Shown: piece after piece, positions 3,871 through 58,117 of the stretch
Position numbering within the stretch: the stretch's first letter is position 1
Layout of the letters: each line of letters begins with the position of its first letter
NCBI GenBank assembly: GCA_004297735.1
Contig: SCTI01000001.1
Span: 115,467 to 179,466 of the forward strand
From: Patescibacteria group bacterium
GTDB lineage: Bacteria; Patescibacteriota; Saccharimonadia; UBA4664; SCTI01
Direction: 5' to 3'
Length of the DNA stretch: 64,000 bases
Translations under genes and position numbers: made by a program
The notes under the pieces: generated by a model
Database searches by the model: none
What the model was told of the DNA's origin: nothing
What the model saw: only the letters and a program-made list of their open reading frames with translations

Positions 3871-6837
3871 TTAAGCTTCCTGCGAGACCGCCAAGCAGTC
3901 CCATTTACTATCGGCGCTGTTATATATGAACCCTAGGTAGTGCGTCTTACTAATAACGGTAGTTGTTGGCAAAGAGGTCCCAACCGCTCGGTAAATCGCA
4001 TTCCAGGCCAGAGATCTGGCAGTCCCATTATCTTTAATGCGGATAATTAGCGACTGGCCATCGGTTGGTGTCCCGGTTGGCGCGCCGAAGGTGGCGCCAA
4101 CCGCCAGGGCGGTCAGAAGGTAGACATCGGTAGTGTCGGCATTTGGCGTGGGAGTGGAGCTTGAGGTGTTGCTGGATATTCGCTTAGTGATACGCTTGTT
4201 GGTCAGGGTTTGGGTGGCATCGATGTTGGCTACCGAGTTAGCCGCCGTACCGGCCGCAGCAACAATTAGGTTGTCATCGGTCTTGAGGGTGTCGGCAGCT
4301 GAGCGATAAAGGTTGGTGTCAGCTGATGCTCCTTGGCCAAACAATATGCCAGCTCCGGGTGTAGCAGAAGCGGTTGCGCCAATGTAGACTTGGTTTGCGG
4401 TTCCGTTATTGGCGCTTAAATAAGATGCTGATAAAAACTGATCATCGGTTTTTAGGGTGTCAGCGGCGCTTCTATATAAGTTGGTGTCGGTTCCAAATGT
4501 AATACCACTAGCTGCCGTACCAGCGGTGCTACTTAACTGTAGTGTATATGTCGAAGCACCCGCGATACGTACCCCAATATTAGATGAACTACCAGCTGTT
4601 TGAGCTGCGACATCTACGCCATATAGATTGACGGGTACTATTGATCCCAAGCTTGGGGCAGATATATACATCGCTACTGCATTGGTTAGAACCCCGGAGT
4701 CAGTACCAGTGTCAATGCGATTAAACCCTGCGTAGGCAGTACCAATAGTCACTCCTGTAGGGGGAGTGCTTTTAGCAATATTAATAAACCCATACACCAC
4801 CGTTGGGTCGGTAGATGGCTTAAATTCGGGCTGTACCGCTAGGCCACCAGGACCAGCGGCGCTACCTGAAAAAATTGGGCTAACCTGCTGGCCTCTTGCG
4901 TTTGCTGTTGAGGTCGTAGTGGTGCCGGTAACAAGCATAAGTGTACTTGGGTTGGATGTAGGCTCAACACGGAGCATGTCATCTGTCTTTAAGACATCGG
5001 CCGCTGAACGGTAAAGGTTAGTGTCGGTTGCGCTGGCTCCACCGGCTCCCCACTCGTGCTTGCCATCGCCAAAAATTCGAAAGGCGGCGTTTGTATCACC
5101 GTTGATTAAATAGTTTGCTATAAATGCGGTTACAGCTGTTTGTGAACCTTGGAGCGCAACCGTTGTAGCTGTATCGGCAAAAAAACCAACAGCTGCGCGT
5201 AACCTGTCGTCGGTTTTTAAACTATCTGCTGCCGAGCGATACAGGTTGGTATCGGCACCGAACAAAATACCACCGGCAGCGGTTGTGGCACTATCAAACG
5301 TAAGGGCCGAACTAATCGTGGCGCTTGATCCGATTCGGACCTTACCGGAGTTATCGATTCGCATACGCTCGGTTACGGTCGTTGTGCCAGCGGGGGTGGT
5401 GTAGAAAGCCAGGCGTCCTGGCATGTCGGCAGCGGCCGGAGTGCCGTCAACCTCCGCCCGGATTAAGGCCGCAAAGGTGTTTGAGTTTGAGCCGTTAGCT
5501 CCAATAAAACTGATCTGACCAAGGTTATCGCCTGACTGCACAATTGTCGTGGAGCCATTGGCTGTTCCGCGCGATTTTACAAAATATATACCGGGCGGGT
5601 TGGCGTCGGCCGAGTTTCTGGTGGCGGATATGGTGGATCCAGCCGCATCGGTACCTTCTAATTGAAGTTGAGGAATTAGGCCGTTGATTGTTCTGAGAGT
5701 TGTATTGTTGTTGCTAATTAAGGTTGCGCCACTAGGATTGACCGTGATCAGCGATGTACCAGAGTACTGTAAACGATAAGCGGTTGTGGCGGCAGAGGTG
5801 ACATTAAGGCGAATACCAGAGGTATTATTGGTTGAAGTAAACTCCAGGATTGGTGCCGCTGCCGTAAAACGCAGAGTCCCGGTATTGGTCCGGGCAAAGG
5901 TGGAGTCGCCACCAAAAGAAAGACCCCCGCTGGTGCTTGCGTTATCGGGGAACAGTATTTGGGTGCTAGCCCCTGACATATTGAGGCTGCCATTCATGGT
6001 GTCGCCGGTATCATCCACCTTGCCAGCAATTGCACTGGTATTTGCCTTTAGGTCGAGTGCGGCCTGGGTGGCAGTTGAGATTGGTTTACTTAAGTCGGAG
6101 GTATTGTCGACATTGCCCAGGCCTACCGCCGACTTATCTAGCGTTTGCCAGCTTTTGTCGCCCCGCCAGTATTGAAGAGTAGTACCAGCGGTGATAGTTG
6201 GCTCTTTGCCGGCTAAGTCGCTGGTTAGATTGGCGACTTTTGCCTGGGCGATATTGGCGCCAACCGCTACCTCGGTGTCGGTTATGGCTAGCGCAATCTT
6301 GTTTTGAGAGATATTGGCCGAGTTTGATATATCAATATCGAGGATGGTGCTTGGGGCGATTTTGCCGGTAGTAACGGCATCGTCAGCCAGCTTAACCTCG
6401 GTGACCGATCCGTCAATAGGGGTTCGCGCGTTGGTCAAGCGTGAGTCGTCGCCTTTAACAACCTGGGTGGCCGTTGCATCACCGCTAGCGGCAACGTCTT
6501 TAGTGGCGGCGGTTCCCAGGCCCGAGACGTCATTGGTATCGAGTGTGACTGCCCCGGTCTTACCGGCGACACTGGTTACCGGTGCGCCTGGCGGGGCAGA
6601 CCATATACCATCGCCGCGCAAGTAGGTACCAGAGTTGGCAGCGCCGCCGCCAAGTTGACCGGCAACAACTAGCCCCCCGCCATCCAACTCAGCCACACCA
6701 CCAGGTTGGCCTTTTTGGGCAGCAGGAATAGGCTGAATCTTAAGTGAGCCATCATCATTATGCTCAACTTTTAAGAAATCATTAAGTAACTCACCCCATT
6801 GACCATTATCTGATCCTGGAATAGGTAAACGAGTCAT
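3871..6837 (-). CDS. Phage tail-fibre-like giant protein (988 aa): tail-fibre repeat motifs (GLGNVDNTSDLSKPIS, GDTMNGSLNMSG), 4x TNLYRSAADxLKTDD repeats, conserved N-terminal module shared with CDS 24159..26432
   Basis: Motifs read directly from the translation. Repeat copies at about nt 5250, 5022, 4485 and 4317. No N-terminal hydrophobic signal. Confidence 0.65.
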   Translation of the reverse strand: MTRLPIPGSDNGQWGELLNDFLKVEHNDDGSLKIQPIPAAQKGQPGGVAELDGGGLVVAGQLGGGAANSGTYLRGDGIWSAPPGAPVTSVAGKTGAVTLDTNDVSGLGTAATKDVAASGDATATQVVKGDDSRLTNARTPIDGSVTEVKLADDAVTTGKIAPSTILDIDISNSANISQNKIALAITDTEVAVGANIAQAKVANLTSDLAGKEPTITAGTTLQYWRGDKSWQTLDKSAVGLGNVDNTSDLSKPISTATQAALDLKANTSAIAGKVDDTGDTMNGSLNMSGASTQILFPDNASTSGGLSFGGDSTFARTNTGTLRFTAAAPILEFTSTNNTSGIRLNVTSAATTAYRLQYSGTSLITVNPSGATLISNNNTTLRTINGLIPQLQLEGTDAAGSTISATRNSADANPPGIYFVKSRGTANGSTTIVQSGDNLGQISFIGANGSNSNTFAALIRAEVDGTPAAADMPGRLAFYTTPAGTTTVTERMRIDNSGKVRIGSSATISSALTFDSATTAAGGILFGADTNLYRSAADSLKTDDRLRAAVGFFADTATTVALQGSQTAVTAFIANYLINGDTNAAFRIFGDGKHEWGAGGASATDTNLYRSAADVLKTDDMLRVEPTSNPSTLMLVTGTTTTSTANARGQQVSPIFSGSAAGPGGLAVQPEFKPSTDPTVVYGFINIAKSTPPTGVTIGTAYAGFNRIDTGTDSGVLTNAVAMYISAPSLGSIVPVNLYGVDVAAQTAGSSSNIGVRIAGASTYTLQLSSTAGTAASGITFGTDTNLYRSAADTLKTDDQFLSASYLSANNGTANQVYIGATASATPGAGILFGQGASADTNLYRSAADTLKTDDNLIVAAAGTAANSVANIDATQTLTNKRITKRISSNTSSSTPTPNADTTDVYLLTALAVGATFGAPTGTPTDGQSLIIRIKDNGTARSLAWNAIYRAVGTSLPTTTVISKTHYLGFIYNSADSKWDCLAVSQEA

Positions 6838-54775: not shown

Positions 54776-55783
54776 ATGATGGCAAAGAAGAAAGAAGAGA
54801 TCCAGAACGAAGAAATCGTTACTGACGAGCAGGTTGAAGCTCAGGCCGAGGCTGTAACTGACGAAGCTCCAGCCGATAACGCTGCCAAAGAAAACACCGA
54901 CGAAACCCCAGATGACACGGTTGATGAGGATAGCAAGCCTCGCACCACCAAGGCTGGTAAGCGCAGCGCTAAGGCTCAGCGAGAGGCCGACGAAGAAGAA
55001 GCCCGCAAAGAGGCCGCCAAAGAGGATAAAGAGGCTCCAGTAAAGCCTAAAATCGTTCACACGCCTAACCCAAAGAACCGTCACGGCAAAAACTACTTGA
55101 GCTCCCGTGAGCTGATTGAAGAGGGTAAGTTTTACGAGCTACCTGAGGCAATTGAGCTGGCAAAGAAGACCAGCAAGGTCAAGTTTGATGCTTCGGTTGA
55201 GCTGCATATGAACCTAGGAGTTGATCCTAAGCAGGCCGACCAGATGGTGCGTTCAACCGTGGTGCTTCCAGCTGGTACCGGTAAGACCATTCGCGTGGCC
55301 GTAATTGCTCCAACCGATAAGCATGCCGATGCCAAGAAGGCAGGTGCCGATATCGTCAGCGACGAAGCCCTGGTTGAGACCATTAGCAAGGGCAAGATTG
55401 AGTTTGATACCCTAATTGCCACCCCAGACATGATGGCCAAGCTCAGCAAGGCTGCTAAGGTGCTTGGGCCGCGTGGCTTAATGCCAAACCCTAAGAGTGG
55501 TACTGTGACTGCCAACGTAGCGCAGGCGGTTGAGCAGGCTAAGGCCGGTAAGGTTGAGTTCCGCATCGACAAGCAGGCCATTGTTCACCTGCCGGTCGGC
55601 AAGGTTAGCTTTGCGGATGACAAGCTGCTCGAAAACCTGACTACCGCTATTCAGGCGATCATGAAGGCCAAGCCGGCCGCCGCTAAGGGTACTTACGTCG
55701 AGGCGATCTCGTTGACCACCTCCATGGGCCCTGGCATCAAGATTGATGTCACCAAGGCAATTGCCGCCAGCAACAAACGCTAA
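54776..55783 (+). CDS. rplA: 50S ribosomal protein L1 with a roughly 100-aa acidic/Lys-rich N-terminal extension
   Basis: Start at the ATG ATG 54776 after an AGGAG RBS. The L1 core runs from about KPKIVHTPNPKNRHGKNYL onward; the preceding 100 aa are low-complexity E/D/K/A-rich. Confidence 0.9.
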   Translation: MMAKKKEEIQNEEIVTDEQVEAQAEAVTDEAPADNAAKENTDETPDDTVDEDSKPRTTKAGKRSAKAQREADEEEARKEAAKEDKEAPVKPKIVHTPNPKNRHGKNYLSSRELIEEGKFYELPEAIELAKKTSKVKFDASVELHMNLGVDPKQADQMVRSTVVLPAGTGKTIRVAVIAPTDKHADAKKAGADIVSDEALVETISKGKIEFDTLIATPDMMAKLSKAAKVLGPRGLMPNPKSGTVTANVAQAVEQAKAGKVEFRIDKQAIVHLPVGKVSFADDKLLENLTTAIQAIMKAKPAAAKGTYVEAISLTTSMGPGIKIDVTKAIAASNKR

Positions 55784-55804
55784 AACTACTTTTTAGATCA
55801 TCAA

Positions 55805-55827
55805 GCCGCCCGGTTGGGCGGTTTTTG
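55805..55827 (+). terminator. Rho-independent terminator after rplA
   Basis: gccgccc-ggtt-gggcggt followed by ttttt. Confidence 0.7.
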
Positions 55828-55899
55828 ATCGGGTAACTGTATTTGACTCGGATCTTTTTGAGTAAAACTATTTAGACTTTTTGACTCAAATTGGCTGTG

Positions 55900-56214
55900 T
55901 AAAACTACGTGTGCGCCCAGAGCGCACCCACACGTCGCAGCTGCTTCAAAGGTAATTAGCCCTGCTTCGTGCAGTCGGGGGCTGTAGTACCGGAATGTTC
56001 CGCCGACGTTCGGTGTAAAACGTCGGCCTGTAGGTTGAAGGTTTAACCCTGCTACCGATCCTTGCCGATGGCGAGGCGTTGTGTGCCAGTAGTGGCCTCA
56101 ACACCCATGTGCTTAGACTCTTGTTCTCTTCTGACGAGCGGTCGCAGCACCCAGTATTCTTACTCCTCCGGTAGCCCCCGGCTGATTACTGGCTTCTACG
56201 ATCTAGGAGCAAAC
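55900..56214 (+). ncRNA. Candidate structured non-coding RNA immediately upstream of the RT gene (retron msr-msd-like or DRT-type ncRNA candidate)
   Basis: GC-rich, about 315 nt, no credible ORF. Perfect hairpins gtgcgc-ccaga-gcgcac (55911-55927) and gccgacg-ttcggtgtaaaa-cgtcggc (about 55996-56026). Long-range inverted repeat cagtcgggggctg (55972-55984) / agcccccggctg (56173-56184), 11/13 complementary. Confidence 0.4.
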
Positions 56215-57258
56215 ATGCCCCTTCACAACACCGGCCAGCTTGAGCTTGAGCTGGAAGCGTTGATGGAGGAGCCGCTGTTTCACTCCTTCATCCATAAAGA
56301 TGTAAATCGACTCTCTGGAAACGTTAAGTTTCGGCGGGTTTCAGCGCCCAATAAAGCGATGCGCAAGATTCACTTGCAGATTCGAGCGGCGTTGAGCCGG
56401 CTTGATGTTGAAATGCCATACGTCACCGCTGGGCTTCGCAAATCCAAAGTGGTCAACCACGTCAAGGCACATCGTGGCAATCAGTACCTGTGTTGCTATG
56501 ATCTGAAGGCCGCGTATGATCACGTCCGGCCAGAAGCGATGGCTGACATCTTGCGCCAACATGGGTTGCCGGAGTCAGACATTGAACTTGTAGCTCGATA
56601 CTGCTTCGGTAATGAAAGCGGTGGATTGGTGACGGGTGGGCTGGTTTCAGTTCAGCTGTTCAACCTGTACGCCAATGAGGTAATCGACCAGCCGCTCGCA
56701 ACGTTGTTTGCCGAGCGAGGCGGCATCACCTATACCCGTTACATTGATGACCTGATTATCTCCTCGGGTGCTCCGATCGGGAGACGGTTCCGTAGGTCGA
56801 TCCTGCAAATCATTCGGGCGGCTGGGTTCGAGATCAAGCCGGCTAAAACACAGCTAATTGATCTGGCGGCCGAGCATAGTCAGATGGCGGTACTCAACGG
56901 GATTGGGCTCGACCTGAACGGCGAGCTGCACGTAAGGCCGCATTATCGCGAACTGCTCTACAGGCTTATCAAGAGAGCTCAGGCAGGAGAGATTGACCCG
57001 AGTGTCGTCCACGGGTGCATGGGGGCGTTTTACGTCATCAAGCCGCGTGGGCAGCAAATGACTCCAGGCGAGCGCAAGCTGGATCGAGCCTATCGCTGGT
57101 ATGTTAATCAGCAGCGGCGAGCAGATCCTGGCCGACCCGAGCGCCGGAGGCGCAAGCAGCAGCAGTATCGCGCCCGGCGACGACTCAAGCCAAGCTATAA
57201 GCGGCATGGTCGCCGTAGCGGACCGGTTGGCACGTACCGACCAAGACCGACTTTTTAA
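56215..57258 (+). CDS. Compact reverse transcriptase (347 aa; RT domains 1-7, YIDD active site, no maturase/endonuclease domain, Arg-rich C-terminal tail)
   Basis: Motifs: KFRRVSAPNKAMRKIH (1), CCYDLKAAYDHV (2), GGLVTGGLVSVQLFNLYANEV (3/4), YTRYIDDLII (5), GFEIKPAKTQLI (6). Start placed at ATG 56215 with an upstream TAGGAGC RBS. The track ORF begins at 56062, but that N-terminal stretch is Cys/Ser-rich low-quality sequence overlapping the structured RNA. Confidence 0.75.
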   Translation: MPLHNTGQLELELEALMEEPLFHSFIHKDVNRLSGNVKFRRVSAPNKAMRKIHLQIRAALSRLDVEMPYVTAGLRKSKVVNHVKAHRGNQYLCCYDLKAAYDHVRPEAMADILRQHGLPESDIELVARYCFGNESGGLVTGGLVSVQLFNLYANEVIDQPLATLFAERGGITYTRYIDDLIISSGAPIGRRFRRSILQIIRAAGFEIKPAKTQLIDLAAEHSQMAVLNGIGLDLNGELHVRPHYRELLYRLIKRAQAGEIDPSVVHGCMGAFYVIKPRGQQMTPGERKLDRAYRWYVNQQRRADPGRPERRRRKQQQYRARRRLKPSYKRHGRRSGPVGTYRPRPTF

Positions 57259-57259
57259 C

Positions 57260-57287
57260 CCCGCGCGTGGTAGCCACTACGCGCGGG
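57260..57287 (+). terminator. Hairpin immediately after the RT stop (cccgcgcgt-loop-acgcgcggg); weak T-tract
   Basis: 9-bp GC-rich stem seen directly. Confidence 0.4.
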
Positions 57288-57421
57288 AGTTTCGTTTAAT
57301 GAATAAATTATGTGTCTGCTACTTGGCTTTAATAACTGGTATTATTCCGCCCTCAAACCTGGTTTAATCAATATTTAATTATGTTTTGGCAGACTGTATT
57401 GTATTAAATAAGGACGCAGAA

Positions 57422-57625
57422 ATGGGGGCAGAAAAAGTATCGTTTGAGGGGGTTCTAGAGCGGTTGCGAGATGTTGAGGTTAAGTTTGAAAACCTTAGGG
57501 CTAACACTGAGGGCATTACAAAAGACATCCTGGCAGATACCAATAATATGCCAACGTACGAAAGAAGACTCAAGAAGCTGGAGTCAGCAGTTGCGGTGCT
57601 GCAGCGGCTTAAACAAAGGAGGTAA
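57422..57625 (+). CDS. Small coiled-coil protein (67 aa), first gene of a translationally coupled pair downstream of the RT
   Basis: ATG 57422 with an AAGGA RBS. Its stop TAA lies inside the AAGGAGG RBS of the next gene. Lower GC than the RT. Confidence 0.45.
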   Translation: MGAEKVSFEGVLERLRDVEVKFENLRANTEGITKDILADTNNMPTYERRLKKLESAVAVLQRLKQRR

Positions 57626-57628
57626 TAT

Positions 57629-57955
57629 ATGAGCCAGAAAGTTTTCACCTACAAAGGGATTACTATTGATATTGATAGCCCGAGAGATAGTTCCATTTTT
57701 CGTTTGATACCAGTAGAAAAAGTTGATAGTGAGTGGCGCAGTCTGCATTGGGGGTACCAGTGGTACCGCAGTCGCTTGGCGATTGCGTTGAGATTGTGGG
57801 GGATGAATGACGAAGCTAAGGAGACTTTCGAGAAGCTTATTGAGATTGAAAATAACGTTAAAGATGGCTATGTCCCTCCATATGACCGTGCAGCTGAAGA
57901 AAGGAAGGAGCACGAAGAGTACATAAAAGCCGTCTTTGGTTCGGTCCAGAGTTGA
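57629..57955 (+). CDS. Small hypothetical protein (108 aa), second gene of the coupled pair
   Basis: AAGGAGG RBS 7 nt upstream. Confidence 0.5.
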   Translation: MSQKVFTYKGITIDIDSPRDSSIFRLIPVEKVDSEWRSLHWGYQWYRSRLAIALRLWGMNDEAKETFEKLIEIENNVKDGYVPPYDRAAEERKEHEEYIKAVFGSVQS

Positions 57956-57980
57956 CAAACATCGGTTCAACAGATACAAT
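57952..57980 (+). promoter_or_regulatory. Consensus sigma70 promoter for rplJL (TTGACA -17- TACAAT)
   Basis: ttgaca at 57952-57957 and tacaat at 57975-57980. Confidence 0.6.
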
Positions 57981-57984
57981 CATT

Positions 57985-58117
57985 GAGATTACTGAAGACC
58001 GGAGCGGCCGCAAAGCTTAATCAGCTCCCGAGGTACATTAGATTTCATGCTGCGTTCATGAATATTTAATGAGACGTCTTCGGCTAATCGCCGAATTTTT
58101 TGTTTTTGGAGACCAAG
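57985..58117 (+). promoter_or_regulatory. L10 (rplJ) leader with an attenuator hairpin (ttcggc-taatc-gccgaa + ttttttgttttt at 58079..58107)
   Basis: Structured 5' UTR of about 130 nt in the position of the L10(L12)4 autoregulatory leader. Confidence 0.5.

Follow-up and report, generated by a model that had tools for sequence, protein, structure and literature searches.

Two small coupled genes beside a retron-like reverse transcriptase in the rplA-rplJ gap of a Patescibacteria genome

The locus

The gap between the ribosomal protein genes rplA and rplJ was analysed in a 64-kb stretch of DNA (the window) from a Patescibacteria metagenome-assembled genome (locus tags EPO04_01075 and EPO04_01080), where a retron-like reverse transcriptase (RT) gene is followed by two small open reading frames (ORFs), ORF1 and ORF2. 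An earlier note on this DNA had proposed the two as a candidate effector or toxin-antitoxin (TA) pair of the RT. The analysis presented here finds the pair physically tied to the retron-like island and genetically separable from it. Coordinates are positions of the window unless another locus is named.

In the 5' to 3' direction the locus consists of secE, nusG, rplK, rplA (ending at 55783), a spacer, the RT, a hairpin, an AT-rich leader, ORF1, ORF2, the rplJ promoter, the L10 leader, rplJ and rplL. The approximately 430 nt between rplA and the RT hold no conserved ORF; a structured noncoding RNA (ncRNA) is found there, and from this ncRNA to the L10 leader all features located in the window are on the + strand. 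The cassette that contains ORF1 and ORF2 is bordered on its left by a GC-rich hairpin of 12 bp (57260-57287), detected by a terminator scan directly 3' of the RT stop, and on its right by the rplJ promoter. The locus was compared with nine related genomes that display secE-to-dnaX synteny or RT-rplJ linkage. One of the loci compared is L002, a Logan/ENA contig with an RT 62% identical to that of the window.

ORF1 and ORF2

ORF1 (57422-57625; ATG at 57422, TAA at 57623-57625) encodes 67 amino acids (aa) and is preceded by a Shine-Dalgarno sequence, AAGGA (57410-57414); ORF2 (57629-57955; ATG at 57629, TGA at 57953-57955) encodes 108 aa. Their description as two small, translationally coupled ORFs was confirmed, with one correction to the geometry: the Shine-Dalgarno sequence of ORF2 (AAGGAGG, 57616-57622, read from the sequence) lies inside the last codons of ORF1, and the TAA of ORF1 abuts it and is not embedded in it, as had been stated. 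Three bases (TAT) separate this stop from the ATG of ORF2. Coupling was also kept in L002 with another geometry, an ATGA overlap between the homologue of ORF1 (6249-6458, 69 aa, 40% identical) and that of ORF2 (6455-6781, 108 aa, 61% identical).

The start codons and Shine-Dalgarno sites of both ORFs are conserved between the window and L002, including the ATG of ORF1 and the AAGGACG before it. In the same comparison ORF2 displayed a nonsynonymous divergence (dN) of 0.26 with a saturated synonymous divergence (dS), its differences being distributed 29/22/54 over the three codon positions, while for ORF1 a dN of 0.51 and a dS of 2.4 were obtained (dN/dS of about 0.21). Judged by this pattern, ORF1 and ORF2 are genuine coding sequences under purifying selection.

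As had been noted earlier, the pair is AT-richer than the RT: the GC content of ORF1 is 46.6% and that of ORF2 44.6%, compared to 55.9% for the RT, and the interval 57288-57955, with 42.4% GC, falls within the lowest 0.4% of equal-sized windows along the 64 kb. The mosaic origin that had been deduced from this difference was weakened by the comparison with L002, in which the pair is similarly low in GC (39.5% and 44.0%, versus 55.1% for the RT). The recurrence of low GC in this diverged allele indicates an old property of the pair and is not evidence of a recent mosaic acquisition. The statement that neither protein has a transmembrane helix also held: no such segment was found in ORF1 or ORF2, the highest 19-residue Kyte-Doolittle (KD) mean being at most 0.39 and the grand average of hydropathy (GRAVY) -0.66 for both.

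Structures were predicted from single sequences only. ORF1, which is hydrophilic, was predicted to form a helical hairpin or coiled coil (helices 8-41 and 43-66) with a predicted local distance difference test score (pLDDT) of 84; among PDB sequences it gave a single marginal match (E 0.016), to a generic coiled coil, and the hairpin matched no PDB fold. For ORF2, also hydrophilic, an N-terminal beta-hairpin followed by three helices was predicted with low confidence (pLDDT 57). Residues 45-80 of this model make up one TPR-like helix pair, and TPR matches were sub-threshold only. A Foldseek comparison of the ORF2 model with PDB folds returned nothing at E<0.9, a weak test for a model of such a pLDDT.

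Homologues were sought widely. A word-indexed search of 5.8 billion protein clusters retrieved ORF1 and ORF2 themselves only, and an exhaustive phmmer search of 1.84 billion representatives with ORF2 gave only spurious matches to fish Ig-repeat and TPR-repeat proteins. The two-sequence ORF2 alignment, used in pattern and tblastn scans, found nothing in GTDB genomes, JGI metagenomes or IMG/VR, and tblastn combined with a profile HMM over 115 fetched loci located the pair only in L002 and in the window's own genome. By these searches the pair is a sequence orphan, with its only homologues in L002.

The reverse transcriptase and its upstream RNA

The RT (56215-57258) is a protein of 347 aa with a YIDD catalytic box and an Arg-rich C-terminal tail. 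It matches Pfam RVT_1 with an E value of 2e-19, and its best PADLOC model is RT_VI (86 bits), followed by RT_III-A (70 bits); matches to NCBIfam retron models were all below cut-off, including that to retron_St85_RT at 77 bits. The shared motif ITYTRYIDD retrieves canonical Type VI loci of Bacteroidota, at 23-31% identity. When public genomes and metagenomes were scanned with an RT alignment, two groups were recovered, one of Patescibacteria RTs (30-37% identity) with no conserved partner gene, and one of Bacteroidota RTs (23-31% identity) with the layout SP (72 aa)-HTH (helix-turn-helix, 96 aa, overlapping the RT)-RT. On the strength of these matches the RT is retron-like, and its nearest characterised relatives appear to be the Type VI retrons, which have RTs of clade 3 (Mestre 2020; Garcia-Rodriguez 2026; Zhang 2025). 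In about 78% of Type VI retrons a Cro/C1-type HTH gene (cluster 2_1, 91-110 aa) lies upstream of the RT or overlaps it. The SP and HTH proteins reportedly correspond to clusters 2075/2760/3272 and 2_1 of Mestre et al. 2020.

The Arg-rich tail (RRRxxQxRYRxRRR..., residues ~290-347, encoded by 57080-57258) is conserved in this RT family and is absent from the canonical Bacteroidota Type VI RTs, which are about 285 aa long.

The ncRNA directly upstream of the RT was located at 55972-56184 by inverted repeat I4 and RNAalifold, within a conserved RNA span of 55965-56192; its length is ~215-260 nt. It is closed by an a1/a2-like helix of 18 bp (55972-55983 with 56173-56184). In an RNAalifold consensus of five loci 46 pairs were obtained, 15 of them with compensatory changes that include the closing helix, and the internal hairpins covary as well. 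No Rfam family matched this RNA, which probably represents an msr-msd-type RNA, as yet undescribed, from a clade of Patescibacteria retrons. The presence of this covarying RNA upstream, together with RT_VI as best PADLOC model, supports the view that the neighbouring RT is retron-like; retrons in general have such an RNA, closed by a1/a2 inverted repeats, immediately before the RT.

Control region and transcription

Upstream of ORF1, an AT-rich 5' control region of about 90 nt (57332-57421, ~31% GC) that contains the ORF1 Shine-Dalgarno sequence was delimited by the window/L002 alignment. It is ~88% identical between the two, compared to only ~62% for the adjoining coding sequence, and holds the dyad TATTTAAT-N23-ATTAAATA. 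We infer that it may be a protein-binding promoter/operator; a highly conserved upstream region with a dyad is typical of autoregulated conflict modules. A promoter scan detected no consensus sigma-70 promoter on the + strand of the ORF1 leader. No signal of RNA structure was found in the leader (z +0.65), nor any complementarity or repeats shared with the RT ncRNA. The possibility that the leader is an element that sequesters the ribosome-binding site, like the hybrid RNA of Type VI retrons, was considered and dropped in view of this z score and of a weak consensus fold with a single covarying pair.

The hairpin that follows the RT is terminator-like in the window, and its stem is kept with compensatory changes in L001 (3717-3744) and L009 (1106-1133); in L002 it is located at 6062-6091. 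Its role may go beyond intrinsic termination. The U-tract after the hairpin is weak in the window, present in L003 and L009, and lacking in L001 and L002. Since it is lacking there, read-through from the RT into the pair would be possible.

The rplA-rplJ gap in related genomes

In the window and in L002 the gap holds ncRNA-RT-ORF1-ORF2, the pair of L002 being at the same position and again adjoining the RT. L001 holds ncRNA-RT, as does L003, where thyA/folA take the place of rplA upstream. L004 (= L110) holds ncRNA-RT-dcd, with dcd on the minus strand; L109 (= L111) and L113 hold thyX-dcd, again with dcd on the minus strand, and L112 holds thyX alone. In L009 the RT is followed by a small ORF, where the contig ends. 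The left-hand slot is thus occupied by thyX or by ncRNA-RT, and the right-hand slot by nothing, dcd or the pair. Over four housekeeping genes L004 and L109 share 97% identity, and yet the RT of the one stands where thyX stands in the other. Taken together, these arrangements show that the rplA-rplJ gap (55784-57980 in the window) is a gene-content hotspot.

None of the four RT-less relatives that have matching flanks carries the pair, and neither do about 100 more distant RT loci. The earlier note had held that wide occurrence of the pair in relatives lacking an RT would speak against its proposal; no such case was seen among these four relatives or in the databases.

The small ORF of L009 (1218-1278; MLTKIDLEQIGQVVETKLAQ...) follows the hairpin of a 71%-identical RT, at a position equivalent to that of ORF1, and its leader shares TTATTTAAT with the ORF1 leader; homology of the ORF itself to ORF1 lacks statistical support. 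L009 was examined as a third occurrence of the pair and rejected, as the fragment scored -0.2 bits against the ORF1 profile and the contig ends after 20 codons. The dcd gene of L004 was likewise considered as an alternative RT effector and set aside because relatives without an RT carry the same dcd next to thyX. Upstream of the L003 RT are thyA, folA, a HIT gene and a dCMP-deaminase gene, and genes of thymidylate synthesis recur around the RT locus.

L001 and L002 are close strains, 93% identical in their housekeeping genes and with a dS of 0.2-0.5 in the flanks, and they differ in the presence of the pair. Their RTs (L001 2673-3716; L002 5001-6059) share only 62% aa identity, with a dS of 1.8. 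This discordance between the RT and its flanks indicates that the RT allele was replaced in one of the lineages, and implies an allelic replacement of the ncRNA-RT block, bounded by putative breakpoints at the rplA terminator and close to the RT hairpin. From the window to L002 the pair has diverged about as much as the RT. This similarity was considered as evidence of co-transfer and dropped, since ordinary neighbouring genes diverge alike: dN was 0.20 for dnaX and 0.38 for a gene encoding a 436-aa hypothetical protein, compared to 0.26-0.51 for the pair.

The pair as a possible conflict module or retron effector

The reading that we favour, tentatively and as a possibility that falls short of probable, is that the pair is a self-contained toxin/neutraliser-type module or a retron effector, analogous and not homologous to the SP-HTH pair of Type VI retrons. 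ORF1-ORF2 would be an optional, lineage-restricted two-protein module in the right-hand slot of the retron-like island. Its two products would be made in fixed proportion and would bind each other, with the helical hairpin of ORF1 packing against the helical, TPR-like region of ORF2. [quoted passage not shown]

The closest functional analogue would be the combination of SP (72 aa) and HTH (~96 aa), which has the same order and similar sizes with no homology. In Type VI retrons SP is the toxin and HTH the antitoxin, and the pair of Retron-Sen3 acts independently of the RT and ncRNA (bioRxiv 10.64898/2026.04.27.721009); in Retron-Vpa2 one hybrid RNA carries the SP coding sequence along with msr-msd (bioRxiv 10.1101/2025.10.22.683967). 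Like SP and HTH, ORF1 and ORF2 are two small co-directional genes beside an RT of a Type VI-related lineage, and their 67 and 108 aa compare to a helical protein of ~55-80 aa followed by one of ~91-123 aa. Unlike SP and HTH, which are situated upstream, in the hybrid RNA or overlapping the RT, they lie downstream of the RT behind a hairpin. No HTH gene precedes or overlaps the RT, the 430 nt before it being free of conserved ORFs. SP toxins (55-79 aa) are encoded in the ncRNA or beside it, whereas ORF1, though small and helical, is located downstream of the RT.

With Type II TA operons the pair shares two small, adjacent and translationally coupled genes, a conserved upstream region bearing a dyad, and a patchy presence among near-identical strains at a variable locus. 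It differs from them in matching no TA family (Pfam, NCBIfam, PADLOC) and no known toxin fold, in having no ribbon-helix-helix (RHH), HTH, AbrB or Phd-type DNA-binding domain that would mark an antitoxin, and in being a single-copy pair of one narrow lineage, whereas TA modules are widespread and mobile. In retrons the RT makes msDNA from the ncRNA, and RT-msDNA holds an effector in check. Like retron effectors in general, the pair adjoins an RT, on the same strand, that has a structured, a1/a2-closed ncRNA upstream; unlike them, it resembles no known effector domain and does not accompany its RT everywhere.

Several results weigh against the favoured reading. Among the five RT loci with a readable downstream region the pair is missing from three (L001, L003 and L004), in all of which the RT and the ncRNA are intact and subject to purifying selection. 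Between the window and L001 the RT displays a dS of 0.94, which is at the level of the host, and an omega (dN/dS) of 0.11; the RT is thus kept by selection in L001, which lacks the pair. The RT can hence do without the pair, which is no obligate partner. The dcd gene adjoins either thyX or the RT, a combination which shows that the content of the slot is not tied to the RT. The spacer of L001 resembles that of L002 (15 of 22 positions), whereas the RT of L001 resembles that of the window; this is suggestive, and only suggestive, of a deletion of the pair in L001 with a breakpoint between the RT and the pair, and it suggests that recombination moves the RT allele independently of the pair. The pair has only two independent occurrences, and as both are in syntenic relatives, its association with the RT is not separable from shared ancestry.

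The searches for relatives point in the same direction. The earlier note had called for a remote homology search, and no relatedness to a retron effector, defence or TA family emerged from it. No significant family was found for ORF1 or ORF2 in Pfam, PADLOC, PHROGs or NCBIfam, no significant match for either in PDB sequences or folds, and no recognisable DNA-binding domain in either. With hhalign, ORF1 gave a probability of 2.2% against 18 SP sequences and ORF2 one of 1.2% against 12 HTH proteins. Genuine Type VI HTH proteins match HTH_3 with E values of 1e-13 to 1e-15; ORF2 has no HTH match. ORF1 does not have the hydrophobic C-terminal core of SP toxins, its maximal 11-residue KD mean being 1.0 compared to 2.0. 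Of the original proposal, that of a candidate effector or TA pair of the RT, the part that stands is a real coupled unit found only beside a retron-like RT; given the persistence of the RT without it and the complete lack of homology, the remainder stays a plausible hypothesis.

A more specific form of the favoured reading, which we consider rather unlikely, is that the pair is the effector of an undescribed retron subtype in Saccharibacteria-like Patescibacteria, composed of a Type VI-related RT and ncRNA without HTH or SP and of a soluble downstream effector that is lost or swapped at the hotspot. Co-occurrence of the pair throughout the RT clade, another generic feature of retrons, was not observed, the pair being limited to the window and L002.

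Alternative explanations

The strongest alternative is that the pair is an unrelated passenger cassette in the rplA-rplJ hotspot, which stands beside the RT by shared ancestry of the locus. We hold this and the favoured reading to be about equally likely. The interchangeability of hotspot modules in close relatives, with dcd combining with both left-hand modules, is what a passenger would lead one to expect, as is an RT that is maintained without the pair. The RT hairpin and the conserved upstream region that the pair has of its own point to a separate expression unit, the dN of the pair is within the range of weakly constrained genes with no sign of co-transfer with the RT, and the similarity of the L001 and L002 spacers suggests a recombination breakpoint between RT and pair. 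On the other hand, the pair was never seen without an RT, neither in the four RT-less relatives nor anywhere in very large databases; it lies directly after the RT in the same orientation, no consensus promoter is detectable in its leader, and the lack of a U-tract in the L002 hairpin leaves co-transcription possible.

It is much less probable that the pair derives from a phage or another mobile element, be it as a remnant or as cargo, for instance an anti-defence or regulatory pair. Its low GC relative to the surroundings and its orphan status would agree with such an origin, as would very weak PHROG matches for ORF1-like coiled coils and the tRNA-Leu gene, a typical integration site, that distant relatives of the RT adjoin. 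The low GC is, however, old and common to the diverged L002 allele; tblastn against 50,697 phage genomes gave no match with E<=1, IMG/VR yielded no relative, and no integrase, repeats or att-like borders were found around the cassette.

Still less credit can be given to the possibility that the pair belongs functionally to the rplJ-rplL operon, as a housekeeping or ribosome-related accessory, for example one whose small proteins or transcript modulate control by the L10 leader. The arrangement at the right border lends it some appeal. The rplJ promoter (TTGACA-17-TACAAT, 57952-57980; 11/12 matches in a promoter scan) begins within ORF2, the TGA stop of which is inside the -35 hexamer, and the L10 leader follows upstream of rplJ (57974-58110; Rfam RF00557, 43.6 bits, E 1e-4). 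The terminator scan found no terminator between ORF2 and this leader, so that transcripts of the pair would extend through the promoter of rplJ and its leader, and the window and L002 are nearly identical over the final eight codons of ORF2 and over the promoter. Against this, the pair is missing in 7 of the 9 related syntenic genomes and evolves far faster than the surrounding ribosomal genes, and loci that lack it have a complete rplJ promoter and leader; in L001 and L003 the same promoter follows the RT hairpin directly or after ~20 nt. Conservation with rplJ as a housekeeping gene, which the earlier note had regarded as fatal to its idea, was likewise contradicted by L001, which lacks the pair with flanks 93% identical to those of L002. 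Given this pattern of presence and absence, the reading as an rplJ-rplL accessory is close to refuted.

That ORF1 and ORF2 are chance reading frames and not genes, as two small, orphan and AT-rich ORFs might suggest, has practically no chance of being correct and is already refuted by the window/L002 substitution pattern, for ORF2 in particular: frames, starts, Shine-Dalgarno sites and coupling are kept at 40% and 61% aa identity, substitutions are concentrated at third codon positions, and dN is far below dS.

If the pair is an effector linked to the RT, it would represent an effector type without homologues in retron biology. Defence and conflict systems of episymbiotic bacteria of the candidate phyla radiation (CPR) have, to our knowledge, hardly been tested at all, and the favoured reading, if true, would offer a rare lead on them; it would also mean that the logic of Type VI retrons, a small helical toxin with a partner of ~100 aa, arose more than once. 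If the pair is only a passenger, it would be an ordinary orphan gene pair and the locus itself would be more instructive, with a retron-like RT and thyX/dcd alternating between rplA and rplJ within 97% identical flanks.

Other observations on the RT family and the flanking genes

In two loci with RT relatives of 44% identity, a tRNA-Leu(CAA) gene (L005 4472-4558; L008 1-70) lies ~440 nt upstream of the RT in place of the ribosomal cluster. Judged by this neighbourhood, the RT family has a further insertion context.

Unrelated small ORFs of 114-136 aa were found 61-74 nt after three other Patescibacteria RTs of 35-37% identity (L010 5957-6361, L056 1263-1673 and L057 5999-6343), one of them encoding a DUF5663 protein. 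Such ORFs are candidates for additional variable cargo downstream of RTs of the clade.

At the N-terminus of rplA (54776-55100), the L1 protein, 334 aa in total, carries an acidic, Lys-rich extension of about 100 aa. The extension is variable in relatives, with identity dropping there to 0.60-0.78.

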